This document shows, piece after piece, positions 5,349 through 53,362 of a DNA stretch of 64,000 nucleotides. Position 1 is the first letter of the stretch; each line of letters starts with the position of its first letter. Where the stretch lies: positions 250-64,249 of the forward strand of contig CAWDXL010000002.1 of NCBI GenBank assembly GCA_963806325.1, in the 5' to 3' direction. The notes under the pieces are model-generated. The model saw nothing but the letters and a program-made list of their open reading frames with translations, searched no databases and had not been told where the DNA came from. Source of the stretch: Candidatus Parcubacteria bacterium (GTDB lineage Bacteria > Patescibacteriota > Minisyncoccia > Phycocordibacterales > JAKAEA01). The translations under genes were made by a program, and so were the position numbers.

Positions 5349-5978
5349 ATGCCGCAAGCTCATAAACAACTGCTGTTTGGTAGTGACGAGGAAGATTTCT
5401 CGGGTGTTATTGTTTACGATATAAGAAATCAAGATTTAATAGTCCTGCTTCAGGACTATTACAAAGTCCAAAAACCTCCGGATTATAGGGACGGCTGGCG
5501 GCCAAAAAACATGCAGCCCCAGATCAAGTTCCCGGGTGGTAAGCATAGTGAGGGCGACAAGAATGCCTACTACACTGCCGCCCATGAACTTGAACAAGAG
5601 ACAAATCTCTGCGTCTGGGATTCTGAGTTCCCGGACGATCCTGATCAGATTGCAATGCTTAATAATCTGATTCATGTGTACACCTTCGAAAAGGTTCCGG
5701 GCCGGCATAATCAGCATTTCTTTGCTGTCAGATACGATGAGTTGCTTGATGTTCCGGAACGGAAGGGTGACATATGGGAAAACGACGAAGAGTTCCTCAT
5801 TGAACCTCGTTGGGTCATGGCTAGTCGAGCCATGCAAATTCTCTTTAGGACTCACCGGCCAGCACTCGAGCATATGATAACAGTGCTCAGTTCTCAGCAG
5901 GACGGGGTGTACGACAAGGATGTACGCTATGCTGCTCGGCGTGATCCAAATCTTGCCAGGTTCCTTGCCGATCGGTAA
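5349..5978 (+). CDS. Nudix-like hydrolase (degenerate Nudix box)
   Basis: ORF track start is 5331 (TTG); ATG at 5349 preferred. GGKHSEGDKNAYYTAAHELEQETNL resembles GX5EX7REUXEEXGU but several positions deviate. Confidence 0.5.
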   Translation: MPQAHKQLLFGSDEEDFSGVIVYDIRNQDLIVLLQDYYKVQKPPDYRDGWRPKNMQPQIKFPGGKHSEGDKNAYYTAAHELEQETNLCVWDSEFPDDPDQIAMLNNLIHVYTFEKVPGRHNQHFFAVRYDELLDVPERKGDIWENDEEFLIEPRWVMASRAMQILFRTHRPALEHMITVLSSQQDGVYDKDVRYAARRDPNLARFLADR

Positions 5979-6050
5979 CTCAAACTCTTTAGAGGTTTGA
6001 GAAAATAAGCGGCGGAATGCATTCACATGCGTCCGCTGCTTTTTCATATA

Positions 6051-10392: not shown

Positions 10393-10435
10393 TTAGTGGT
10401 GGAGAAATAGTTATTTGTTCCAGCTCAACTTTTTT

Positions 10436-10538
10436 CTGTCATTCCCGCGCAGGCGGGAATCCAGTTACCACTTTTTCTATATAATTTTTTACACAAAATT
10501 TTGTGGTGACTGGATCCCCGTTTTCACGGGGATGACAG
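10436..10538. mobile_element. MITE-like element with roughly 36-bp imperfect terminal inverted repeats (family 2, copy A)
   Basis: Left arm is CTGTCATTCCCGCGCAGGCGGGAATCCAGTTACCAC. Right arm reverse complement is CTGTCATCCCCGTGAAAACGGGGATCCAGTCACCAC. Each arm is itself a hairpin and the core is AT-rich. Confidence 0.6.
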
Positions 10539-10544
10539 AATAAA

Positions 10545-18362: not shown

Positions 18363-21300
18363 ATGCAAAAATCAAAACCAATAAATAATTCAGATTTCGA
18401 CAATATCGTTCTCAAAGTCGCCTCTCCGGAGCGAATTAAAGAGTGGTCATTCGGCGAGGTCACAAAGCCTGAAACGATTAATTACAGGACTCAGCGATCG
18501 GAAAAAAGCGGTCTCTTCGATGAAAAAATATTCGGACCGGACAAGGATTATGAATGTTACTGCGGAAAGTACCGCGGCATCCGCTATAAAGGAATCGTCT
18601 GTGAAAAATGTGGCGTTGAAATTACCCGTTCTATTGTCCGCCGCGAGCGTATGGGTCACATCGATCTTGCGACACCGGTTTCTCATATCTGGTTTCTCCG
18701 CTCGATGCCATCGCGTATCGGCATTGTCCTTGGCCTCAATACTCAAGATCTTGAAAAGGTGATTTATTTTGCTGGCTATATTGTGACACATGTTTCTGAA
18801 GATGAGCGGTCTCGCATCATGAAGGATCTCGATTCCGAATTTAAGTCCAAGATGAAGAATCTTCAGGATGACAAATCAAAAGAGGCCCTCAAAGAGACAT
18901 ACATGCAGGCCAAGAAAGATATCGAATTGGTTCAAGAAGGCCAGGTGCTCGATGAAGTTCAGTATCACAATTACAGCTTGAAATACGGTACGCTTTTCGA
19001 GGCCGGCATAGGAGCAGAAGCAATCTATAATATTTTTAAGAGTCTTGATATTAAGAAGCTTGTCACGAAGCTCGAAGCACAGCTTGAAAAAGCAGGTGCT
19101 GCCGACACCGAAAAAATCCAAAAGAGGCTTTCAGTGCTTCATTCAATGCTTTCATCCGGGATTCGTCCAGAATGGATGTTTCTCACTCGTATTCCTGTCA
19201 TTCCGCCGGGCATTCGCCCGATGGTACCGCTTGATGGTGGTCGCTATGCCACATCCGATGTTAATGATCTCTATCGCCGTGTCATCAACAGAAATAATCG
19301 TCTTAAGAAACTTAAGGAAATTCATGCTCCCGATGTTATTTTGAGAAATGAAAAAAGAATTTTGCAGGAAGCTGTTGATTCGTTGATCGACAATTCTATT
19401 CGCCATGGCTATTCATCTCAGTCGGCTGTCAACCAGTCTCAGCGACGCGCGCTCAAATCTCTTTCCGACAACTTGAAAGGCAAGCGCGGACTCTTCAGAG
19501 CAAATCTTCTCGGTAAGCGTGTTGACTACTCAGGCCGCTCAGTTATTGTGGTCGGTCCTAATCTCTCGCTGAACCAGTGCGGTTTGCCAAAATTTATGGC
19601 GCTCGAACTTTTCCGTCCGTTTGTTATTTCCGAACTTCTTTCCCGTGAGAACTCGCGTACAATATTCGCGGTGCCGGTCGTCTCATTGACGACGGTATTC
19701 CTGAAGTCTGGGCAATCCTCGAAGATGTCATCAAAGATAAGTATGTTCTTTTGAACCGCGCACCTACGCTGCACCGCCTCGGTATTCAGGCATTCAAGCC
19801 TATTCTTATTGAAGGCAACGCTATCCAGGTACATCCGCTCGTTTGTACGGCTTTCAATGCCGACTTCGATGGTGATCAAATGGCCGTGCACGTTCCGCTT
19901 TCAAAAGAAGCACAGCTCGAAGCAAAGGAAATCATGGCTTCGGATAAAAATATCTTGAAGCCGGGAAACGGCGAGCCAACGCTTTCAAATAAAATGCTCG
20001 ACATTGTCCTCGGCTGCTACTGGGTGACAAAAATCGTTGCGGGAGAAAAAGGCGAGGGTAAAATGTTTGGCGATGGCAACAGTGCCATTACCGCGCAGGA
20101 TTTTGGCGAGCTCAGTCTCCGTGCAAAAATAAAAGTGCTTCCTGAGGATACAAAAAAATATGCAGAATTTGACGGAAAACCGTTTGAAACATCCGTTGGC
20201 CGCATTCTTTTCAATAATGTCCTTCCGGCCGACTATCCATTCATCAATTCTGAAATCAACCGCAAGAAAATCGGTGCCATCGTCAACGATATGATTGACC
20301 GTTACGGCATTGACAAAGTTCCGGGAATTTTGGACAAGGTTAAGGAATTTGGTTTCAGGTATGCCACAATCTCAGGTGTCACGTGGGGTATTGATGATGT
20401 TGTTATTCCAGCCGGTAAAGGCGCAGTTATCACTGAATCGCGTGCGAAAGCGGAAGGAGTCATCGGCCAGTTTAATGACGGTTTGCTTTCTGAAGATGAG
20501 CGCATTCGAAAAATTATCGAAATTTGGCAGGATGCAAAAAGTCAGATTGAAAAGCTTATTCCAGACAGTCTTGATAAGAATGGTCCTGTGTTTGACATGG
20601 TTACGTCTGGCGCTCGAGGTTCTCTCGCTCAAATCGTTCAGATGGCAGGGATGAAAGGTCTCATTACGAATACTGCCGGCAATACCATTGAATTTCCAAT
20701 TCTCTCGTGTTCGAAAGAAGGTCTCACACCGATTGAATACTTTATTACCACTCACGGATCCCGCAAAGGTCTTACCGACACAGCACTCAACACCGCAAAA
20801 GCAGGATACCTTACTCGTAAACTTTTCGTAGTTGCCCAGGACACAATGATTGCCGAAGAAGATTGCGGTACGAAAAAAGGCGTATGGATCAAGCGCGACA
20901 GCGGCAACGGTCTTGAAATTCCAATCTCAAAAATTATCAAAGGCCGTGTTGTTGCCGAAGATATTCTTGATAAAGAGGGCAAAGTGCTCTTCAAGCGCGG
21001 TCATGCTCTTACAAAGGATGAAGCGCTTGTGGTGGAAGGACATGGCATTGAGCAGGCATATATGCGTTCACCAATGGTCTGTGAGACCGTGGGAGGCATC
21101 TGCGCCCAGTGTTACGGCTTCGATCTCGGAAGCAACAAGCTTGTGGAGCTCGGCGAAGCAGTGGGTACCGTAGCTGGTCAGGCTATCGGTGAACCAGGCA
21201 CGCAGCTTACGATGCGTACGTTCCACACGGGAGGTACGGCTCAAGTTGGAGGTGATATTACTCAGGGTCTTCCTCGTGTTGAAGAAGTCTTTGAAAAGCG

Positions 21301-41953: not shown

Positions 41954-42568
41954 CTAGTTTTTATATACCCACACGCGTGCCGACATGCCGCTCTTGAGCT
42001 CCGGATACCGGGCAGGATTGAAGCGTACATATATGCTAAATTCATTTGTCGGCCGCTGGTTGAAAATGTTGTTGGTGACGCTGGCTTCCGATGTTTGGCT
42101 GATCTCATCAACAATACCGTAGTATTCGTTGGATCCGAATGCGTCAACAGTAAACTTTGCTACATCGCCGACATGTATATCTTCAAGCCCTTTATCTTCA
42201 TCAAGATTTCCAACAACGCGCAATTGGGTCGGATCAATCATGGTGGCGACGACAGCCTGGCCGGCAAGCGGATTTTCAAATTGACCGATATTTTGGTTTA
42301 CAGAAACAATTAATCCGGCCACCTTTGCTTTTATAATTTGATCCCCAACGCGCGCGATCGGTTCGTTGGCGGTCACGGAGTCTCCGGCTTTTACAAATAC
42401 CTCCTGAAGTATATCCGAGTTTGCAGGGGAGAGGCTGATGATTGGAGCCTCAATAACAGATTTGTCTATATAAACATAGTGTGAGGATACGTAGAGATAT
42501 ATACCAAGCGCACATGCTCCGATCAAAATAATGCCAATAAACCAGATTAACGTCTTTTTTTGTTTCAT
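41954..42568 (-). CDS. HlyD-family periplasmic adaptor-like protein
   Basis: N-terminal TM helix, then a lipoyl-like segment (VFVKAGDSVTANEPIARV) and a beta-barrel segment. Confidence 0.55.
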   Translation of the reverse strand: MKQKKTLIWFIGIILIGACALGIYLYVSSHYVYIDKSVIEAPIISLSPANSDILQEVFVKAGDSVTANEPIARVGDQIIKAKVAGLIVSVNQNIGQFENPLAGQAVVATMIDPTQLRVVGNLDEDKGLEDIHVGDVAKFTVDAFGSNEYYGIVDEISQTSEASVTNNIFNQRPTNEFSIYVRFNPARYPELKSGMSARVWVYKN

Positions 42569-42572
42569 AATA

Positions 42573-44116
42573 TTAAAAATCAGTAATGTTATCTCCCGCA
42601 TTTAATCCCGAAACAACCTCGGTCATGTTGTCGCTTCCCGTAAGGCCAAGCATGACCTTTTGTCGAATAACTTTGCCATTGTTCTGAATAAGAACAATAT
42701 TTGTGCCGTTGTCGTCGAATACAAGGCGGGATGGTACTTCCACAACATTGTCGTGTTCGGCGGCTGTGATGGATACGTTGCCTGTCATGCCCGCGCGGAT
42801 TCTTTCATCAGGCTGGGTAAAATAAAGGGTTACGTGATAGGCGGGTGATCCATTCTCTATTGTTTCTGAGGTATCAACTGCAGTTACTTGGGCGGGGAAA
42901 ATCACACTGTTGCCATATGCATCAAGGGTAACTGTTGTCGTGGCGTTTGTCTGCACTTGCGAGACATCTGTTTCTGGGGCATACGCATCAATTTTCATTA
43001 TGCCGCTATTAATCACAGAAAGTACCGGAAACATCGGCTGATACGACCATACCTGGCTTGGCAGTTACGTTTCTTGAATGCCCGAAAATGGTGCTGTGAT
43101 TGTGGTGTTGTCATAATTTATCTGGGCTGCCTGAAGCGCTGCTTCGGCAGAATCAAGGCTTGCTTTGGCTGAATCAAGTGTGTCGGGAATAGCGGGGGCA
43201 ACTTGAACGGTGAGATTTGATTGAGCATCTTGAACAGTTTGGATACCAGAGGCAATAGCTGAGACGGCGTTTGCGGTCGACGCAGCAGTGGACGCTGCGG
43301 TGCTTGAGTAGGCATTCATAATGCTCTGATATTTTGGCTCATTGAGCGAAATTGAATTCACGACAGAAACAGGGTCAGATGTAAAATTTTGAATTTTTGC
43401 AAGATATGTTTGAGAAGTTGATGCCAGATCCTTTGCGTTGTCGAGTGATGATGATGCCTGCGCGATTGCGGTTTGCCATGCCGACAATGTAGTGCCAATA
43501 GCGGCACGTTCTGAATCGAGATTGAGATTTTTATTTTCATCCGATGCCGTCAGAGTAATTGGTAAACCTGTCGTTACGATCAACAAATATTCCGAATTGA
43601 GGAGAAAATGAATCAGCGTTGGTAAAAAATTGATCGGCGCTTGTATGAATTATATTATTTATTGCCGTGTACTGTGATTGATCAGGTTGGCAAGGTTTTG
43701 CTCGGCATTGGTGATTAATAGCTGGCTCGCGCTGATGCTTTCCGGGGTATCGGAACCATTGAGCACTTTGTCATAGTTTGCCTGGGCCACAGCTACAGTG
43801 CCTGCGCCTCGCTGAGTGCTGTTTGTCGGGCTGAATTATCAAGACTTGCAAGTGGCTGCCCTTCAGTGATGATTTGTCCTTCTTTTACATTCACCGCTGC
43901 TATTTTGCCTGATTCCTGAAAAGAAAGACCAACGCTGTTGCCTGAAGATACTGTTCCTGGGATATCTAAAAATGAAATAATATTACCGCGTGTGACCGTG
44001 TAAAAGCCAAGTGCAGGTTTGGTGTTTGAAAAAATGTCCAGATTTCGCCGCCAATAAAACAAGGCAACGATAAGTAAGACAAAAAAACGGATATGATTGA
44101 TAAAAAACTGTTTCAT
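42573..44116 (-). pseudogene. efflux periplasmic adaptor (HlyD/MacA-like) split into three ORFs
   Basis: 43793-44116 is the N-terminal TM plus lipoyl part (VNVKEGQIITEGQPLASL). 43065-43586 is coiled coil. 42573-43034 is the C-terminal barrel. The three are in different frames. Confidence 0.7.
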
Positions 44117-44164
44117 AAAATAATGTTAATACTATGACGATTATATAATGGATTGCTCATCATC

Positions 44165-44903
44165 TCAAACTTGGATTTTTTCAAAGAAATAACTGCCGAT
44201 CCACAAGAGCAGCGCCGCAGTGACCGCAAGTACCACTATGTCGCGTCCCAAACCCAAATCGTGATAGCCAATATCGGAAAGGGAACGCGCAGTCCGTCGA
44301 CACCATAGGTAAGCGGATCGATGCGTGAAATAACCGAAAGTTCGATTGGCAATCCCTGCAGTGGAAATAAAGCGCCGAAAGAAAGAACATCGGCTGTACA
44401 ATAAATTAAGGATAAGTGAAAAAGCTTATGTCATCAAGAAAGGAAGCGATGATGGTGCCGAAGGATGAAAAAATGAGGCGATAAAAAACATGATGAGTAT
44501 CGCAGGCAAAACCAGTGTCCAGCTCACCGGTCGAAAACCAAAGAAGAGAGAAATGATAAGCACGATGGTGCCTTGGATAGTGGCTACTGTTGCGCCGCCG
44601 AGCGTTCTGCCGAGCATGACGTCAAAACGCGACATGGGAGCTACTAATGTTTTAAGAAATCCAACTGCCGATCCCAGATGACCTCCATTCCCGTAAAAAT
44701 TGCCGTAAATATGATACTCATTCCTATAATGCCAGGCGCTAGATAATCGAGATAATTGCCTCCGGCTACCAAGAATGTATTGCCGAAGCCGTAGCCAAAC
44801 ATAAGGAGGAAAACAATAGGCTGAGCAAGTGTCCCACCATGCGCGCCCTCGATCGTATATATTTTTTGATTTGCCGGAGCCAAAGGTAATAAATCTTTTT
44901 CAT
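44165..44903 (-). pseudogene. ABC-2 type transporter permease with at least 3 frameshifts
   Basis: MKKIYYLWLRQIKKYIRSR (start 44903), then QPIVFLLMFGYGFG...LAPGIIGMSIIF...WDRQLDFLK and LGRTLGGATVATIQGTIVLIISLFFG, in other frames. Confidence 0.75.
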
Positions 44904-44917
44904 TAGATATTTAAATA

Positions 44918-45703
44918 TTATCGCCGCATCATGCGCTGCATTGAACGTGCGTGGTCTGAAGGGTCTGCTTCTTCTCCGCGAATATTCTTGCCGGTGAGCG
45001 CAAGGAACGCGTCATCAAGAAACGTAGTATTTGTCTGATGTTTAAGCTCTGCTGATGTACCCATCGCAACGATTTTTCCATGATCCATGATGGCAATACG
45101 GGTGGCGATTCTGTCTGCCTCTTCCATTTGATGCGTAGTAAGAAATACGGTCATTTTTTCGGTTTTGTTGAGATGCTGCAGGCGGTCCCACAGCAGACTT
45201 CGTGTCTGGGTATCAAGTCCTGTTGTCGGTTCGTCAAGAAAAAGGATTTTCGGCTCATGCAAAAGTCCACGGGCAATTTCAAGCCGGCGCTTCATTCCTC
45301 CGGAAAATGATTTAACAAAACTGTCTTTTCGTTCCCATAGATCGACAAATTTCAAAAGCTCCTCACTTCGCTGCCATCGGTCTTTGTCGGGTACATCGTA
45401 AAGCACGCCGTGCAAATCCATGTTTTCCCAGGCAGTCAGATCATCATCGAGGCTAGGATCTTGAAAAACAATACCGAATGTCCGGCGCGCTGCCTCGGGA
45501 TCTTTTACGGGATCTATATTGTCGAGCATGACAGAGCCTGAAGTGGGGTGGAGGAGCGTCGTAAGCATTTTTATAGTTGTACTTTTTCCCGCGCCGTTTG
45601 GTCCAAGAAATGCAAATACCTCTCCATCATTTACGGTAAAAGAAACATTATCTACTGCTACAAAGTCGCCATATTTTTTAGTGAGATTGCTTACTTGAAT
45701 CAT
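44918..45703 (-). CDS. ABC transporter ATP-binding protein (DrrA-like)
   Basis: Walker A GPNGAGKSTT, signature FSGGMKRRLEIA, Walker B ILFLDEPT. Confidence 0.9.
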   Translation of the reverse strand: MIQVSNLTKKYGDFVAVDNVSFTVNDGEVFAFLGPNGAGKSTTIKMLTTLLHPTSGSVMLDNIDPVKDPEAARRTFGIVFQDPSLDDDLTAWENMDLHGVLYDVPDKDRWQRSEELLKFVDLWERKDSFVKSFSGGMKRRLEIARGLLHEPKILFLDEPTTGLDTQTRSLLWDRLQHLNKTEKMTVFLTTHQMEEADRIATRIAIMDHGKIVAMGTSAELKHQTNTTFLDDAFLALTGKNIRGEEADPSDHARSMQRMMRR

Positions 45704-45809
45704 GTGACTGTATTATAGTCTTTTTTAATTTTTTTAAAAAGTATTTTGTTGAGCTTCAATTTTCCAATTTCAATCAATTCATATACATAAAAAACTCAAC
45801 CAATAAAAA

Positions 45810-45906
45810 GGACCGCTTCCGGGGGGAAGAAGCGGTCCGAGGGCGGCCCATTGGGGGGAGATGGGCCAGGGCTGTGGTCCTAGTGGGGAAGGGGGTCTAG
45901 GACCAG
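45810..45906 (-). ncRNA. three tandem GC-stem hairpins with conserved C-rich loops; the last doubles as a terminator
   Basis: Minus-strand loops are ACCCCCUUCCCCA, CUCCCCCCA and UUCCCCCCG on unrelated stems (GGTCCTAG, GGCCCAT, GGACCGCTTC), joined by similar 6-nt linkers. The last hairpin is followed by UUUUUAUU. Confidence 0.45.
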
Positions 45907-45964
45907 TGGGATCAGAATGATGAACAACGGTCTATACACCATACTAGTCTAATTGCTGGAAATG

Positions 45965-46066
45965 TCAAGAAGCTCTCATTTTCTCCAAGGCTTTGTCTTT
46001 TATCTTCCGAATCTCTTCAGGAGTCATGTTAAATTCTGATTTTTTAAGGTCACCAGGAATATCCAT
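45965..46066 (-). CDS. 33-codon ORF resembling the sigma-70 region 4.2 recognition helix
   Basis: MDIPGDLKKSEFNMTPEEIRKIKDKALEKMRAS. The segment TPEEIRKIKDKALEKMR compares with the rpoD C-terminus in this window, [23 protein letters not shown] lies 4 nt upstream of the ATG. Confidence 0.3.
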   Translation of the reverse strand: MDIPGDLKKSEFNMTPEEIRKIKDKALEKMRAS

Positions 46067-46069
46067 GGC

Positions 46070-46122
46070 TGTCTCCAGACAAAGAGCCGTTGTCTAGACA
46101 ATGTAGACTGTCTACTTGTCTC
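46070..46122. promoter_or_regulatory. three adjacent palindromes sharing TGTCT/AGACA half-sites (operator-like)
   Basis: TGTCTCCAGACA (46070-46081), TTGTCTAGACAA (46090-46101) and GTAGACTGTCTAC (46103-46115), plus the half-site TTGTCTC. Confidence 0.5.
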
Positions 46123-46145
46123 ATGCATCAAAATTTACTTTTAAT

Positions 46146-46174
46146 ACTATATCATCTAAAACTAATTATGTAAA
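46146..46174 (-). promoter_or_regulatory. candidate promoter TTTACA-17-TATAGT reading toward the small ORF
   Basis: Minus strand: TTTACA (46174-46169), 17-nt spacer, TATAGT (46151-46146). Confidence 0.5.
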
Positions 46175-46185
46175 GTGTTTGTTGA

Positions 46186-46222
46186 ATATAAAAACAACCG
46201 CTCGGCATGAGCCGGGCGGTTG
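46186..46222 (-). terminator. rho-independent terminator of the 46259-46666 gene
   Basis: CAACCGCCCGGC-tcat-GCCGAGCGGTTG, followed on the minus strand by TTTTTATAT. Confidence 0.7.
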
Positions 46223-46258
46223 GGGTTAAAAAGATCAACACGACGTAACGAAGTTCTG

Positions 46259-46666
46259 CTACTTCTCTTTGAATTCGATCACGATCTCATCACAAAACTT
46301 GTTGACGTAGATTCTGTGTTGAAATGCGGGAAGAGGAGATTTGATTCCCGGTAACTCTGCTGAATACAGAAGCAGCATCTGGTCACTCGTAAGCCGAGTT
46401 GCCAGCGGGACATCCTGTATTTCACCCGGAACAATACATCTCTTGTCGCAGAACACGAGAATGGGTGCCGGTTGAGTCGTTGCCGTCCATGTTTCATCAA
46501 TGAACAGCGGCTGCGACGTCCTGTTGAGAATGAGGACGTGATCGGTGCACACTCGGCGCATTGCCCCGAGGGTAAGCCGCTCGGTGGCTGGAGAGGTGCA
46601 GCCAATAAGACCGGCGAAACAGAAAACGGTAACAATGACGCTCAAGAGACGAGGAACACAGCGCAT
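46259..46666 (-). CDS. hypothetical lipoprotein
   Basis: MRCVPRLLSVIVTVFCFAGLIGC lipobox. GGAGG lies upstream of ATG 46666, the internal Met of ORF 46259-46729. Confidence 0.55.
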   Translation of the reverse strand: MRCVPRLLSVIVTVFCFAGLIGCTSPATERLTLGAMRRVCTDHVLILNRTSQPLFIDETWTATTQPAPILVFCDKRCIVPGEIQDVPLATRLTSDQMLLLYSAELPGIKSPLPAFQHRIYVNKFCDEIVIEFKEK

Positions 46667-46817
46667 AGCAAGGCCTCCAAAAAAGTTCGGCGATTTCTTA
46701 AAAACATGATACACAACTTTGACGCTCATGTCAAGTTTTTTGAGTAAAAATAAGAGGTCTGGATCTTTTATGATTCAGACCTCTTTGTGTGATGTATATT
46801 GTGTGCTTGTCTCTACA

Positions 46818-47277
46818 TCAATCAGGGCACTTGCGTGCGCCGTAAGACTTAAGCCTCTCGACGATTTTTTGGATCTCGATATCCCAATGAAGACCGGCCC
46901 TGTTGTGGTCGGCTATTGATCCGCATATCATATACGGGGTGCTGTCACACTGTTTACGCCGGGCAGTAACCCATTCCTCATCAGAGGCGATATTGCTCAT
47001 CCAAAAATAATCTGAGGAAATGACTATCTGCTGTAATGCTTGATTGCGGATTGCTTCAGAAACTTTGTCCGGAATTTTTACGTATTCCCATGTAAATGTT
47101 GGAAATAATTGGCGGAGGCAAGAAAAGGGGATCGTATCCTAGAACTTCTGAAGCTACGAGAAAATCCTGGATAGTGACAAGAAGATCAAAACGATGGCAA
47201 GAAATAGGTTTAGGCGGATTACCTTCAAGAATAAGGAGATTTTCTTTCTGAATTGTCTGGTTATCAAATTTCGGCAT
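46818..47277 (-). pseudogene. hypothetical gene apparently split by one frameshift near 47100
   Basis: ORF 47056-47277 has GGAGAG upstream. Its frame-shifted continuation ...FTWEYVKIPDKVSEAIRNQALQQIVISSDYFW runs without a stop into ORF 46818-47000. Confidence 0.3.
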
Positions 47278-47604
47278 GTGGACTCTCCATAGTCTCGCGG
47301 ACTATCTCACGCATGGGTGTATATCCCTTGTAAGCCTTGGTGACAGGCTTTGTAAAAAAGAACGCAGGTACTCAAGACGTTGGAGAAGGAGTTTACTTAA
47401 TACTTAACATAATAGCAAAATGTAATTTTTTGAGTCTGGGATCATCTTCATATCCATGTTTGATGATGTTTTCTCAATCGTAGTAATTTTTCTTGTGCTT
47501 TCTCTAATTGCAGGTCTCGTTGTGATCGGTTGTATAATCGGATTTGCGACGGTGTTAATAGGATTTATTTTCTAAGATATAAAAAGGAGAATAAAATTCT
47601 ATAC

Positions 47605-48091
47605 CTATTTATGTGCAGCTAGGAAATTGTCAAGCTTGGCTAGCTGCTGTGTGAATCCAGCTTCCATGCCCTCGACAGCCATTCGGGCTGCAGATCCTGT
47701 TTCGTGTATAATCGCAACAATTTTCAATGCGGTCTTGCCATTTTTTTCGGTCAACGTTACCTCTGTGGTTTGACTGATCAGCGTATCATCTTTACTTTGC
47801 CCTTCCGTCCACGCTTTGGCGTCATATGAAAGTTTTGAATATGGTTCAACAGCAGTAAATTTTGCAAGCATTGGCCACCGTGTCCCCTTATATGGACCCA
47901 TTGCTTCTCCGGCTTCCATGACAATATAAAATTTGCCGCCCACGCGCAAGATCGACTTCGCAATCGGGGATAACAACATTATTGGGCCCCCACCACTGTT
48001 TAAGCAATTCGGGATCGGTCCAAGCATTCCAAACCATTTCGGAGGAAGCATCAAAAACTCGTTCTAATATCAATTCTTTTTTATTGTTCAT
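47605..48091 (-). pseudogene. SRPBCC/AHSA1-family protein with one frameshift
   Basis: ELILERVFDASSEMVWNAWTDPELLKQWWGP (47888-48091) continues in another frame as ...GGKFYIVMEAGEAMGPYKG...FTQQLAKLDNFL (47605-48054). Confidence 0.7.
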
Positions 48092-48335
48092 AATGTTTAT
48101 TTTTATCTAACGCTCAACCATGACGTTAATTTGGTTCGTCAATTGCATAAAATATATCTGTTATATGTGTTTTACGGCAGTAAGATACTTAAGTCAATAC
48201 TTAGATCAAAAGAAACCCCAACCTTTTTCGGTCGGGGTCATCATTTTGAATATTAAACGAAGAATAATCTTGAATTCAACTAGAAATGCTTGACACATCA
48301 ATTTATTATGCTAGTTTTATATTCAGTTTTTATGT

Positions 48336-48408
48336 ATGGGCGTAGCTCAATCGGCAGAGCACCAGACTGATGGTCTGGAGGTTCTAGGTTCAAGTCCTGG
48401 CGTCCATT
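48336..48408 (+). tRNA. tRNA-like gene, anticodon position reads GAU (Ile) but with atypical features
   Basis: The cloverleaf folds by hand: acceptor ATGGGCG/CGTCCAT with A1:U72 and one G-U pair; D arm GCTC-AATCGGCA-GAGC; anticodon arm CCAGA-CTGATGG-TCTGG; T arm CTAGG-TTCAAGT-CCTGG. G37 and a pairable C32-G38 are unusual. Confidence 0.6.
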
Positions 48409-48480
48409 TGTATATGTTCCACATGATGGTGATCCTGTGCCTTGCGGCCGTACACACCCTTGGCTCAGTGATTCTCGCTT

Positions 48481-48514
48481 GGCCGCTCGTACTGACAAAC
48501 GAGCGGCCTTTTAT
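48481..48514 (+). terminator. rho-independent terminator
   Basis: GGCCGCTCGT-actgacaa-ACGAGCGGCC followed by TTTTAT. Confidence 0.75.
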
Positions 48515-48541
48515 ACGCACAAAAATGGGGGGTATAAATTT

Positions 48542-48580
48542 GATATAAAAAAGAGCCGGTTTCAAATGAGAAACCGGCTC
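48542..48580 (-). terminator. rho-independent terminator (minus strand)
   Basis: GAGCCGGTTTC-tcattt-GAAACCGGCTC, followed on the minus strand by TTTTTTATATC. Confidence 0.65.
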
Positions 48581-49310
48581 CATGTTTGGGGCAACACGCC
48601 CGAGCGGTATTGAGGATGTGCAGACAATTGAATCCATTCGAATCCATTCTATTTCAGACGCACATCCCGAGGTACTAGCTGGGGGATGGTATATTCGAAA
48701 ACAAATAAAAAGCAAGCAGAACCCGTCATGTTGACTATATGTATATATGATGTTAGAGTGAAAAACTAAGATGTAATCCAAACCCAAAGGAGGCCTATTA
48801 TGGCTGGTGGTTCACAGTAAGACGCGGCGCGGCGATTCTTCTGACCTACGGACATGATATTTGTTCTTGCTTCTGCGAGACGACGGGACACCTGGAGCTA
48901 ATGCAGCGCTGCAGTGGGCAGTTACTGGAGGTATCGAGCCTGGGGAAAGTCCGATGAGACGATTGGTCGTGAGATACTGGAAGAGATAATCTTCCCAGAT
49001 GACAGTCTTGAGATTCTCGGCGCAACCGTTTCCAACACATCGTACATCGGTACCCTAGTGGACAGCAGGCCACGACTCCGGCAGGGCGAAGGCTGTGCCC
49101 GAGGATTCTTTCCTTCGATGCTCTCATCAGAGTCTGGCGAAGGTCGAAGGCGAGGATCATGTGGGAGTGCTATCCGGCACTTCATGCAAAACGCCCCCGA
49201 AGGAAATCCGCAAGCTCTCAGCTTCATGGCGCTCCGGCCTCACTTTTCACGAATGTCCGGTGTCTCACCGCTGCCAGTAACTTAAATCGAATTGTACCAA
49301 AGCAGTTCGT

Positions 49311-49338
49311 TGCCCGATGATGAGTCGGGCATTTTTTC
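49311..49338 (+). terminator. candidate terminator
   Basis: GCCCGA-tgatgag-TCGGGC followed by ATTTTTTCTT. Confidence 0.5.
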
Positions 49339-49390
49339 TTGTTCGAAAAATATTCAGGCATTTCCATAAAAAATTTGCTAAAATAGCTTC

Positions 49391-49641
49391 ATGACCAAAA
49401 AAGCAATTTCCAGCGGCGTAGTGCATACGGTGCCAGCGGATTTGCAAAAGCTATCACTCCTTCTGAAGTGATGGACATGGGAGATTACACCGCTCGCTCG
49501 CAATGAGTGGATTTGTCGATTATTTCAGTCAAAAAACCGGAGACAAGGGAGTATCATATCAAGCGCGCACGTGAGGGATCTTTATCAAAGGCAAACGCCG
49601 GCCGTGCTGCTGACGCCACTATGCCTCATCAGTTGAAATAA
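49391..49641 (+). pseudogene. YdeI/OmpD-associated family protein, multiply disrupted
   Basis: MTKKAISSGVVHTVPADLQK, ITPLARNEWIC, KKPETREYHIKRARE and GKRRPCC are family-typical pieces found in three different frames with stops between them. Confidence 0.6.
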
Positions 49642-49866
49642 AAAAGCCATGGGGCAAACTGCTTTGCGCACCATGACTTTTGATTCGCTGACTCTGTCTT
49701 TGTGGTCGGCGATACCCTGACCCTCGCCATTAGGCCGGGTAACGTGATCCAGCCACTCGTCAGATTTTCAGCAAATCTCATTCGGGCTCGCTGTAGTATA
49801 CATGAGCTTCGCCTTGATTCAAAATGAATTTAAATGTCTAATTTTGTACCAAGATTTTTACAATAG

Positions 49867-49914
49867 TATAAAAAGAAAGCCCCAGATGAAAGACTGGGTC
49901 TTTCATCTGGGGCT
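49867..49914 (-). terminator. orphan strong hairpin/terminator
   Basis: 17-bp perfect stem AGCCCCAGATGAAAGAC with a 3-nt loop, followed on the minus strand by TTCTTTTTATA. No intact gene lies immediately upstream. Confidence 0.5.
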
Positions 49915-50337
49915 GGGGCGAATCTAAACTATTCCTTTTTTGCAGCCCTCTGCACTTGCGCGATGAACTATTGCAGGCATTTTGTCCAAATCCGTCGCTC
50001 GTTGCTATCGGTGCATTGTTGTGCGTACTTGGCGTCGGATATGCTATCTGGGTGTGGTAACTATTTGTGAATAATCTATCGTTTACTCGCTAATACTAAA
50101 TATGGGGAGGGGCGGCTAACGGTCAAATTGATTACCAATAAATTCGAATTCTTGCTACAATAAAAAGCACGGTATAAGAGATGTTTTACAAATCTTGAAT
50201 CATTGCCCCGATTACAAGACCACATCCGTCCATAACCTTTAGGGTATTTCTAAAGGTCGAATTTAAAAATCAACCCGGTATTTAATTTATGGAAGAAAAG
50301 ATAAATTGTGAATATGATACGATTTTTGAACGATAGA

Positions 50338-50955
50338 TTATTTGCACAGAACTGTTTCAATGGGGAGACCAAAAAGAAAATTATTGCTCTTTGTTATCAT
50401 TGTAAAACTATTATGTGTGAGAATATCTTCCAAAAATATTGGCTTGCAGTCTATGATAGACGGAAACTGTGTATGAACCCATTCGTATAACCTTGCTATG
50501 GAATTTTGTTCAACAGTTTTTGATAGTGAAAGTATGCATATTCTTCCTGATGGTTTAAGAACTCGTCGGCATTCTTGTAACACAACATCAGCGTCTCTCT
50601 CACTAAATGTTTCTAAAACAAAACTCATAAAAATAGCGTCAAACATTTTTTCCGGATAGGGAAGGGCGAGAGCACTGCATTGTGATAGTTCAATAGATTT
50701 TTTTTCAGGAACTTTTTCTATTTTTTTCTCTGCGATTGCAAGCATATTTTTTGAAATGTCCACGCCAAAAGCTTTACCATTTCCTTCGATCAATTTTGAG
50801 ATATTAATAAGGGAACTGCCTGTTCCGCAGCCGATTTCAAGAATGTATTCTCCTGGTTGAGGAGCAAGCATCCCTAGTGCGCTGTCAGTGGCATTTTTCT
50901 CCCATCTTCCGGCAATAAGATCGTACCATCGGGCAAGATATGAATATACAAACAT
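50338..50955 (-). CDS. class I SAM-dependent methyltransferase
   Basis: Motif I ILEIGCGTGS and a post-I acidic residue (GVDIS). Confidence 0.8.
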   Translation of the reverse strand: MFVYSYLARWYDLIAGRWEKNATDSALGMLAPQPGEYILEIGCGTGSSLINISKLIEGNGKAFGVDISKNMLAIAEKKIEKVPEKKSIELSQCSALALPYPEKMFDAIFMSFVLETFSERDADVVLQECRRVLKPSGRICILSLSKTVEQNSIARLYEWVHTQFPSIIDCKPIFLEDILTHNSFTMITKSNNFLFGLPIETVLCK

Positions 50956-51025
50956 AATTAAGGTATTTTAATTGTAACCTGATATAATTTTACCATGGAT
51001 ACAAATGTATATGCTGGTCTGAAAG

Positions 51026-53362
51026 ATGAAGGATATTGATGGATTGCGTGAGCAGTATGGCTACAATGAATTGCCTGAATTTCATGAAAGTCTCATCCTG
51101 CTCTATTTAAAAAATTTTTGGGGACCGCTTGCATGGCTCATGGAATTAATGATTATTATTACTTTTGCGTCGGGTAATATAATTGAAGCGATTGTTATTG
51201 CTTGCCTTCTCTTGATAAATGCTGCTATCAACATTTATCAGCGCCGATCGGCAGATGTAGCTTTGTCCACCTTGCGTCAGGCTATACAGGTTGTCGCTCG
51301 CGTGAATCGAAGCGGTTCTTGGAAAGTGCTGCCCTCGCGTGAACTTTTGCCTGGTGATATCATTCGTCTTCGAGCTGGCGACATTGTACCGGCAGATGCG
51401 ATGATCATTGAAGGCAATTTAAGCGTTGATCTTTCCAGTCTGACAGGCGAGTCACTACCGCGGGAGATTGGCAATCAGGCTGAAGTCTATTCTGGCGGCA
51501 TTGTGAGGCGCGACGAGGCGACCGCTACGGTGACTATGATCGGCAAGCAGACTCAATATGGCAAAACAACGGAACTTCTTGAAATTGCCCATCCTCCGAC
51601 GCACATGGAGAAAGTTGTGTTCAGTATCATAAAATATTTTTTTGTACTCAATCTTGCTGTGGCAGCTGCCGTAATAATTTTTGGCTTTAGTGTCCATGCT
51701 CCAACGCTGCAGATTATAAATTTTGTCATTGTCTTACTCCTCATGTCGGTACCGGTGGCTTTTCCGACAATGTTTTCAGTGGCACAAACATACGGTGCGC
51801 TTCAGCTGAATAATCCCGATACTTCTGGCAAGGAAGGGGATGGTAAAAGAGTTTTAGTCCGTAGGCTGGCTGCGGTGCAGGAAGGTGCCATTATGGATAT
51901 CTTATGCAGCGATAAAACAGGCACATTGACGCAAAATCGCTTGAGTGTCGCGGAAATTACGCATTATGGCAGCAATAACGATAATCGTGTATTGATGCTC
52001 GCCGCTGCCTGTAGTGATGTAGCTGATGAAGATGCTATTGATCAGGCTATTTTTAAAAGAGCTGCTGAACTAAAGATTGTTATTCCGAAAAAAATAATTT
52101 TCCTTCCATTTGATTCGTTAACCAAACGTACACAGGCAGAAGTTGTGGAAGGAGATAAAAAAATAAAAATTGAAAAAGGTTTGGCCGACCTGTTGATCAG
52201 TCCTGATATATTTTTTGCAAAAGAAGCTCTTGAAGATGTGGCGAGTATGAGCGCCAAAGGGCTGCGCGTTTTAGCTATTATTACACATGAGATGTCCGCC
52301 CAGTCTGATACAAAGACAGAGTGTATCGGTCTGATTGGTTTGGATGATCCGATCCGTGAAGATGCTCCGGCACTTATTCAGGAGCTTGCAGAGCTTGGTG
52401 TGCGAGTCGTGATGATTACTGGAGACGGGCGTGTCACAGCACAGGCTGTGGCGCGGCAGCTTGGTTTACAAGGTGCTGTTTTCACTTCTGCTGATCTCAA
52501 GCAAAATCCACAAATTGCATGTAATGGTGCAGTATTTGCTGAAACCTATCCGGAAGATAAATTAACGATTATTCGAGCGTTGCAGAATGCGGGTCATGTT
52601 GTTGGTATGACAGGGGATGGGGTAAATGATGCACCCGCACTGCATCAAGCTGAAGTTGGCATTGCTGTATGTGATGCGACAGAAGTCGCAAAACAATCTG
52701 CAAGCTTTATCCTGACAAGTCCGGGGCTTGATGGAGTGCGCAGGGTTGTGACTGCCAGCCGGCGTGTATATATGCGCATCCGCACATGGGCTCTCAATAA
52801 GGTAATTAAATCCGTAGAGGTTCTTTTTGTTGCTACTATTATATTTTTAATAACGCATTCATATATTCTATCTCCGCTTCTGGCTGTTCTTCTTCTCTTA
52901 GCAAATGATTTTGTCACGATATCCATTGCTACTGATCACACTACGCCTCTTGCCCGTCCAGCTCGATGGGATATCCCGAATCTTATTATTGCGTCGGCTT
53001 ATTGTGCGCTGGTACCGATTGTGTTTGCCATGGCAATTTATTTCTATGCGGAGCATTTGGATTACTCGTTTGATGTAGTCAGAACGATTATGTACTGCAC
53101 CCTTATATTTTTAGGAAAAGCAACTTTGCTTGCTGTCCGAGCGTGGCCGTACGGGTGGAGTGTCCGTCCAAGCAAAATACTTGTCGAAGCATTGGCATTT
53201 TCTCTGATATTTACTTCTATCGTCTCTGGATTTGGAATATTTATCGCAGCTATGCCTCCGTTCTTCTTTATAATTATTACTCTATGTGCGATTGCAAGCT
53301 TTTTCCTCATTCAGATCATCAAGCAATTTCGCAGTGTTCGTGCTTTATTGGATATCAGGTAA
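51026..53362 (+). CDS. P-type ATPase, plasma-membrane proton-pump-like (type IIIA)
   Basis: DKTGTLT, MITGDG, GDGVNDAPAL, and an N-terminus YGYNELPE...FWGPLAWLMELMII typical of H+-ATPase-type pumps. 778 aa. Confidence 0.85.
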   Translation: MKDIDGLREQYGYNELPEFHESLILLYLKNFWGPLAWLMELMIIITFASGNIIEAIVIACLLLINAAINIYQRRSADVALSTLRQAIQVVARVNRSGSWKVLPSRELLPGDIIRLRAGDIVPADAMIIEGNLSVDLSSLTGESLPREIGNQAEVYSGGIVRRDEATATVTMIGKQTQYGKTTELLEIAHPPTHMEKVVFSIIKYFFVLNLAVAAAVIIFGFSVHAPTLQIINFVIVLLLMSVPVAFPTMFSVAQTYGALQLNNPDTSGKEGDGKRVLVRRLAAVQEGAIMDILCSDKTGTLTQNRLSVAEITHYGSNNDNRVLMLAAACSDVADEDAIDQAIFKRAAELKIVIPKKIIFLPFDSLTKRTQAEVVEGDKKIKIEKGLADLLISPDIFFAKEALEDVASMSAKGLRVLAIITHEMSAQSDTKTECIGLIGLDDPIREDAPALIQELAELGVRVVMITGDGRVTAQAVARQLGLQGAVFTSADLKQNPQIACNGAVFAETYPEDKLTIIRALQNAGHVVGMTGDGVNDAPALHQAEVGIAVCDATEVAKQSASFILTSPGLDGVRRVVTASRRVYMRIRTWALNKVIKSVEVLFVATIIFLITHSYILSPLLAVLLLLANDFVTISIATDHTTPLARPARWDIPNLIIASAYCALVPIVFAMAIYFYAEHLDYSFDVVRTIMYCTLIFLGKATLLAVRAWPYGWSVRPSKILVEALAFSLIFTSIVSGFGIFIAAMPPFFFIIITLCAIASFFLIQIIKQFRSVRALLDIR

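Follow-up and report, generated by a model that had tools for sequence, protein, structure and literature searches.

The DNA analyzed here, which we call the window, is a stretch of 64 kb from a 225,718-bp source contig of a Patescibacteria MAG. The proteins of this contig form singleton clusters at 90% identity, and exact-protein look-ups for the genes of the window found none on record. The locus under study is located on the minus strand, directly upstream of a gene coding for an ABC ATPase and in the neighborhood of a P-type ATPase gene; their best matches, at 83% and 79% amino acid identity respectively, are both in Patescibacteria/CPR MAGs. Read along the minus strand, the order is an orphan 156-aa ORF, a TTTACA promoter-like site, three palindromes, a 33-codon ORF, a TTGACA promoter-like site, three hairpins, a U-tract and the ABC ATPase gene. 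The features are the following:

46729-46259, minus strand: orphan ORF of 156 aa with its own terminator, matching only itself
46146-46174, minus strand: upstream promoter-like site TTTACA-17-TATAGT with a TG, assigned to the small-ORF unit
46070-46113, minus strand: three TGTCT/AGACA palindromes (GTAGACAGTCTAC, TTGTCTAGACAA and TGTCTGGAGACA) within the 33-codon ORF's leader
45965-46066, minus strand: 33-codon ORF (MDIPGDLKKSEFNMTPEEIRKIKDKALEKMRAS), with GGAG 6 nt ahead of the ATG
45941-45968, minus strand: promoter-like site TTGACA-16-TAGTAT, with 10 of 12 consensus matches (a prediction)
45906-45935, minus strand: 5' segment of the predicted RNA, about 30 nt from an inferred start site, U/A-rich and mostly unpaired
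45875-45905, minus strand: hairpin 1, 9-bp stem UGGUCCUAG/CUAGGACCA and 13-nt loop ACCCCCUUCCCCA, predicted -12.6 kcal/mol
45869-45874, minus strand: linker 1, CAGCCC, C-rich and unpaired
45844-45868, minus strand: hairpin 2, stem UGGCCCAU/AUGGGCCG and 9-nt loop CUCCCCCCA, predicted -11.8 kcal/mol
45839-45843, minus strand: linker 2, CCCUC
45810-45838, minus strand: hairpin 3, the terminator stem, GGACCGCUUCU/GGAAGCGGUCC with the 7-nt loop UCCCCCC, predicted -18.6 kcal/mol
45803-45809, minus strand: U-tract UUUUUAU of the intrinsic terminator, with the predicted 3' end of the RNA near 45805

Three tandem hairpins with C-rich loops had been described here from the letters of the DNA, and the sequence is indeed as described. 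Between 45905 and 45810 of the minus strand, the three hairpins are adjacent and perfect, with stems of 9, 8 and 11 pairs when U.G pairs are counted. The stem of hairpin 1 has 8 pairs if the outer U-A is left out, that of hairpin 2 consists of 7 Watson-Crick pairs and an outer U.G, and the 11 pairs of hairpin 3 include one U.G and become 10 when the loop is taken as UUCCCCCCG. The minus strand from 45906 to 45803 reads CUGGUCCUAG-ACCCCCUUCCCCA-CUAGGACCA CAGCCC UGGCCCAU-CUCCCCCCA-AUGGGCCG CCCUC GGACCGCUUCU-UCCCCCC-GGAAGCGGUCC UUUUUAU. The loops, of 13, 9 and 7 nt, are nearly all C, with the C-runs arranged as C5UUC4 in loop 1, CUC6 in loop 2 and UC6 in loop 3, and they follow each other at spacings of 35 and 32 nt.

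The likeness between the three units is not limited to the loops. A CCC(N)CU linker is found ahead of each hairpin: GCCCU is present in both linkers when the flanking base is counted, and CCCACU precedes hairpin 1. All three stems exhibit GGNCC at their start and GGN'CC at their end, with a central pair that is U-A, C-G and A-U respectively, and the inner stems are wholly different between the units. The sequence-only reading had called the stems unrelated, which is right for the inner stems but not for these common stem bases. The shared linker, stem base and C-rich loop lead us to regard the hairpins as three diverged copies of one unit.

We compared the fold and the composition of the element with the background of the window. 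The minimum free energy gave a z-score of -4.3 for a 151-nt stretch and of -6.1 for the predicted 133-nt RNA, and none of 200 dinucleotide shuffles was as stable as the hairpin stretch. Positions 45811-45910 correspond to the 100-nt segment of highest GC content in the 64 kb (0.70, compared to a mean of 0.448 with an sd of 0.07), and C makes up 42% of the predicted RNA. In the predicted ensemble, the four C-runs of the loops (C5, C4, C6 and C6) have an unpaired fraction of at least 99%. On the two strands of the window together, a loop with CCCC is closed by a stem of 8 or more pairs in only five hairpins, and three of the five are the adjacent trio; no comparable hairpin cluster was present in 80 bacterial loci of about 0.9 Mb. 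The three-hairpin observation is real. A separate structural feature is located at 10434-10540, between convergent genes, where a near-perfect inverted repeat of about 35 pairs has a fold z-score of -8 and is the top structural outlier of the window once GC content is corrected for.

Pattern matching, both exact and with mismatches, a hairpin scan and a covariance model all show the element to be single-copy within the 64 kb. A generic REP-like repeat had been named in the first reading as the alternative, and with one occurrence a dispersed palindrome of the REP/BIME type is not supported within the window. The 28 stem positions are all paired despite the lack of common sequence in the inner stems. 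As far as the sequence can speak, this perfect pairing of differing inner stems, together with the varied middle pair of GGNCC, argues for selection on pairing. The comparison between units carries some weight because the neutral decay of duplicates would not give 28 pairs out of 28. The covariation announced in the sequence-only reading is seen only from unit to unit within this locus; no homologous locus was found in which it could be compared, and inter-unit covariation at a single locus is no substitute for comparative evidence. The hairpin element is probably an RNA gene.

The same reading had proposed a strand-specific structured element closed by an intrinsic terminator, and here the prediction agrees with it. 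Hairpin 3, with its 11 pairs (7 of them GC) followed by TTTTTATT, has the makeup of a rho-independent terminator, and the terminator of the element is predicted on the minus strand only. The near-consensus TTGACA-16-TAGTAT site is about 35 nt upstream of hairpin 1, with a predicted transcription start at about 45935-45933, and its TTGACA shares bases with the TGA stop codon that closes the 33-codon ORF. The hairpins begin about 60 nt past this stop codon and would be the 3' UTR of the ORF if transcription reads through. On the other side, the ABC ATPase gene starts 102 nt beyond the U-tract, with a TATAAT 8 nt ahead of its ATG. The ABC ATPase genes of relatives (loci L002, L005 and L007-L009, at about 5960-6003) show a conserved GGTTATAATCTGA...ATG arrangement.

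This layout could also be explained by functions in cis only. The hairpins would then be the 3' end of the small-ORF transcript, in which hairpin 3 terminates and hairpins 1 and 2 stabilize the RNA, blocking 3'-to-5' exonucleases and shielding the promoter of the downstream ABC transporter from read-through, while the C-rich loops would play no part in pairing. The short distance from the ORF stop, the good promoter and SD that the ORF has of its own, the minus-strand terminator, the TATAAT of the ABC ATPase gene and the lack of pairing targets in the window (see below) are all consistent with it. However, each of the other terminators of the window consists of one hairpin with an ordinary loop, protection leaves four looped C-runs and C-rich linkers unexplained, and a near-consensus promoter-like site is located directly upstream of the hairpins. 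The 33-codon ORF, moreover, lacks homologues and is possibly no gene at all. We consider this explanation rather unlikely.

The small ORF and its leader were further analyzed. The C-terminal 22 residues of the 33-aa product showed a weak likeness to Sigma70_r4 (Pfam, 15 bits, E 0.018, sub-threshold), covering the last helix of sigma-70 region 4, which is the recognition helix; no sigma-like sequence was found upstream of the ORF in any frame. Neither of the two protein collections contained a homologue, the one match being a 2427-aa repetitive protein. Of the palindromes in the leader, the last overlaps the SD. The TGTCT..AGACA form was found twice, compared to 0.17 expected, and is confined to this leader within the window. 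As RNA, the leader folds in an ordinary way (z = -0.19), so that the palindromes look like DNA operator sites, and judged by their sequence they may be such sites. We rejected the idea that the leader arose by duplication of the 5' end of the ABC gene, the alignment being no better than those of shuffles.

The tail of hairpin 3 with its U-tract (AGCGGTCCTTTTTAT, 45803-45817) and the terminator of the 156-aa ORF (AGCGGTTGTTTTTAT, 46188-46202) are identical at 13 of 15 positions. These two tails are 385 bp apart and flank the whole module of small ORF and hairpins. Their similarity may be a chance likeness or a trace of module insertion.

We then searched for the element in related loci. A synteny scan for genome contigs carrying the adjacent ABC ATPase gave 80 loci, all from Patescibacteria or Acidobacteria MAGs. 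In the closest relatives (75-83% aa identity) no such hairpins were found upstream of the ABC ATPase gene, and the genes upstream of it differ between the relatives' loci. A search of related loci by covariance model had been put forward as a check on the structure, and with a model built from the single sequence it gave nothing convincing in the 80 genome loci and nine P-type ATPase loci (L201-L209). Its matches in Acidobacteria loci and in L204 were rejected as GC-rich or terminator look-alikes, and the runner-up in the window (20.7 bits, 48546-48633) is an ordinary terminator. Altogether, no homologue was detected at the syntenic ABC-transporter locus of relatives or in about 1 Mb of loci, and distant blastn searches against phages and plasmids returned nothing relevant to the element. 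Metagenome contigs were scanned with the loop-only pattern CCCCCTTCCCC..CTCCCCCC..TTCCCCCC, which contains no stem bases and gave at least 120 loci; all of the matches listed are polypyrimidine low-complexity sequence, with a median pyrimidine content of 0.91, and none is three-stemmed. Among these matches (L081-L200), long pyrimidine-rich tracts with C-runs, at a median of 91% across the span matched, are frequent in a few JGI samples, for example Ga0179593_* and Ga0179591_*, and such tracts are a trap for loop-only scans of C-rich motifs. Conservation is the weak point of the case for the hairpin element.

The surroundings of the element differ from those in a related MAG. On its contig CAYQFA010000010.1 (loci L202, L203 and L005), the ABC operon, an isochorismatase gene and the P-type ATPase gene are contiguous and co-oriented. 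In the window (41954-53362), the ABC operon is inverted with respect to the P-type ATPase gene, from which it diverges at a distance of 5.3 kb. These 5.3 kb hold the hairpin module, orphan ORFs, an AHSA1-like gene, a tRNA-Ile and 1.9 kb devoid of ORFs, and are absent from the relative's contig. The ORF-less part, 48409-50337, adjoins the tRNA-Ile and shows no convincing ORF over about 1.9 kb. It contains minus-strand intrinsic terminators near 48546, 49330, 49640 and 49880, strongly folding segments at 48481-48580 and 49821-49960, and no Rfam family at threshold. On the operon side, the genes for an ABC-2 permease and a HlyD/YknX-like adaptor (42573-44883, minus strand) are split across frames, with intact homologues in L202; they are either pseudogenes or the result of long-read homopolymer errors. 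If the frameshifts are homopolymer errors, the lengths of the C-runs in the hairpin loops could be off by one as well.

Such a setting raises the question of a functionless by-product, in which a terminator or palindrome was duplicated in tandem at an inversion or insertion breakpoint and lies, possibly transcribed, in a decaying lineage-specific region. The 5.3 kb that separate the ABC operon from the P-type ATPase gene here and are missing in the L202/L203 relative, the orphan ORFs on the flanks, the frameshifted permease and HlyD-like genes, the resemblance at 13 of 15 nt between the upstream terminator and the end of hairpin 3, and the lack of homologues in the loci searched would all fit it. 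But neutral duplicates should have gained mismatches, which the fully paired stems did not, and the loops have kept their C-runs in a composition that is extreme for the window. We regard a by-product as unlikely.

The repeated GGNCC may also be read at the level of DNA. The window contains 84 GGNCC sites, compared to 141 ± 12 in dinucleotide-preserving shuffles, every one of which was higher, and this scarcity could be restriction-site avoidance. It is possible to imagine that the cluster of six sites, or a G-quadruplex or i-motif in the DNA, serves as a site for a protein or for restriction-modification, or as a barrier to replication or transcription. The avoided sites do form the bases of all three stems, and four runs of at least 4 G stand within 75 nt of the plus strand. 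Nevertheless, any stem that starts with GGNCC automatically yields a pair of sites, the spacing of 25-26 nt between the G-runs is poor for a quadruplex, and the U-tract and promoter give the element the strand polarity typical of an RNA gene. We consider a DNA-level feature highly improbable.

At gathering thresholds, Rfam recognized only two tRNAs in the whole window. A permissive search (E ≤ 10) on a 191-nt stretch around the hairpins returned full-length, sub-threshold matches, and almost all of these are sRNAs with stable hairpins, C-rich apical loops and a terminator. The highest score was that of ar14/cuckoo (RF02344), at 33.4 bits for a gathering threshold of 58.8, with an E-value of 5e-5 on the 191 nt that becomes about 0.02 when scaled to the window; ar14 was not reported in a 4-kb Rfam search. 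It was followed by sX13 (RF02232; 27.6 bits for a threshold of 50), Scr3202 (RF02833; 27.5 bits for 52) and 6C (RF01066; 26.9 bits for 47), whose whole model is spanned by hairpins 2 and 3. Weaker matches were anti-hemB and a few others. RsaE/RoxS (RF01820) gave no match at E ≤ 10 on this stretch. The likeness to C-rich-loop regulatory RNAs suggested in the sequence-only reading is consequently borne out in that the nearest models are such sRNAs, all below threshold, but its example RsaE is not among them. The element has the architecture of the C-rich-loop class and is a member of none of these Rfam families.

In RsaE/RoxS and RNAIII of the Firmicutes, unpaired UCCC/CCCC motifs pair with G-rich SD regions; the host here is not a Firmicute. 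This pairing principle is cited in PMC3771888. The cuckoo RNAs (ar14; CcsR1-4/NfeR of Alphaproteobacteria) resemble the element by their tandem stable hairpins, C/U-rich apical loops and terminator end. They are often co-transcribed with a very small ORF and cut out of its UTR (PMC8034643), to which the small ORF beside the hairpins would be a parallel. The cuckoo family was built by a search based on structure, with a descriptor or thermodynamic matcher. In contrast, the anti-SD motif CCUCCUCCC, carried by each cuckoo loop (PMC8034643), is missing from all three loops here. The adjacent 33-aa ORF, with no match to DUF1127, differs from that of the cuckoo CIN1 subgroup, which contains this domain, and the host is a Patescibacteria MAG rather than an alphaproteobacterium.

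The sX13 RNA of Xanthomonadaceae folds into three stems capped by 4C/5C loops and, independently of Hfq, represses mRNAs with G-rich motifs near the start (PMC3771888). Its arrangement of a 5' region without structure and a set of three stem-loops that bear 4C/5C at the apex, the third of which is the terminator, is also that of the predicted fold here, and both RNAs are about 115-130 nt in size; this is a likeness of architecture and not homology. The two share no sequence homology, sX13 adjoins polA in another host and context, and the element has longer C-runs and no G-rich start regions in the window. With 6C and Scr3202 of Actinobacteria, it shares loops in which at least six C follow each other. 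In 6C, pairing takes place directly between the C6 loops and G-rich ribosome-binding sites, and no chaperone is needed (PMC6486639). Two stem-loops with at least six loop C are present here as to number, loops 2 and 3 each having C6 at this one locus; the element differs from 6C in that it has three hairpins instead of two and in that its host has a GC content of 45% and few SD or G-rich starts.

We also considered TIGR arrays, which occur in CPR and phages and consist of about 36-nt units, with two variable spacers between box C/D-like motifs, next to a gene for a Nop-domain Tas protein (PMC12045711). A TIGR array was rejected since no Nop-domain protein is encoded among the neighbors, and TIGR spacers were rejected since the loops, which consist almost purely of C over 7-13 nt, have neither the length nor the variety of spacers.

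The loops had been read as anti-SD sequences. CUCC is present in loop 2 only, the other loops being plain C-runs suited to G-runs rather than to GGAGG, and most genes of the window have no SD: an SD-like 4-mer was found at -20 to -4 of 11 of the 50 gene starts, compared to 12% of random positions. A TANNNT box starting 10-20 nt upstream was found at 18 of the 50 starts, compared to 15% of random positions, which suggests, by promoter-like sequence, that many mRNAs in the window may be leaderless. The anti-SD reading is weak. Target prediction at start regions, also proposed beforehand, did not bring out partners within the window, as no loop-to-start duplex energy was above background. The best duplex, of -17.8 kcal/mol and located upstream of the gene at 18363, falls short of the 1% quantile of random windows, and runs of at least 5 G were absent from the translation-initiation regions of the window (about 50 starts). 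These results, which cover a portion of the genome, weaken the targeting of G-tracts, which may still apply.

The lack of base-pairing targets in the window would also suit a decoy, in which the three C-rich loops sequester a poly(C)-preferring RNA-binding protein, for example one with a KH domain. In the sponge RNAs CsrB and RsmZ, repeated GGA loops titrate CsrA, and the repetition of a C-rich motif in each apical loop on different stems recalls this design. Three sites are nevertheless few, no candidate binding protein is encoded nearby, and no precedent of a bacterial poly(C) sponge was found in the literature searched. As the documented C-loop sRNAs all act by base pairing (PMC3771888, PMC6486639), we find a decoy very unlikely.

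Our favored reading, with a probability of about 0.4, is that the element is a lineage-specific sRNA or 3'-UTR RNA of about 130 nt whose C-rich loops pair with G-rich mRNA targets. We infer its transcription and ends, its action in trans, its targets and its origin by duplication from the features described above. A C-rich RNA of about 130 nt would be made from the minus strand, either by initiation at a promoter of its own where the 33-codon ORF ends, or as the 3'-terminal part of the ORF mRNA, or in both ways, and would end at hairpin 3 and the U-tract. The three stable stems would keep the four C-runs permanently single-stranded in the apical loops. The loops could then base-pair with G-rich stretches of target mRNAs by G-C 'kissing', either loop to loop or loop to single strand, and the pairing would alter the translation or the stability of the targets with no chaperone, as has been shown for sX13, 6C and cuckoo/CcsR. 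The three units would probably derive from a local tandem duplication, after which the stems diverged with compensation.

A more specific form of the favored reading, which we put forward tentatively and as somewhat doubtful, is that of a young, lineage-specific CPR riboregulator, born by tandem duplication and kept by selection, which acts by chaperone-free kissing between C-loops and G-tracts in a genome whose mRNAs appear to be mostly SD-less or leaderless. If this were true, the RNA would target G-tracts, either those of 5'-proximal coding sequence or those of the SD-led minority of genes, and it would not be a general anti-SD mimic.

With a single unconserved locus, the value of the element is that of a lead and not of a result; it provides a concrete RNA that can be looked for in metatranscriptomes of CPR-rich samples. 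The CPR/Patescibacteria have tiny genomes with few recognizable regulators. In the literature searched, we found no description of post-transcriptional regulation in this group and none of an endogenous base-pairing sRNA in Patescibacteria, for which the hairpin RNA may be the first candidate. If the reading is true, the element would be an independent case of the C-rich-loop design seen in Alphaproteobacteria, Xanthomonas, Actinobacteria and Firmicutes, and would support the view that G-C loop pairing is a simple, chaperone-free solution that bacteria have repeatedly re-invented.
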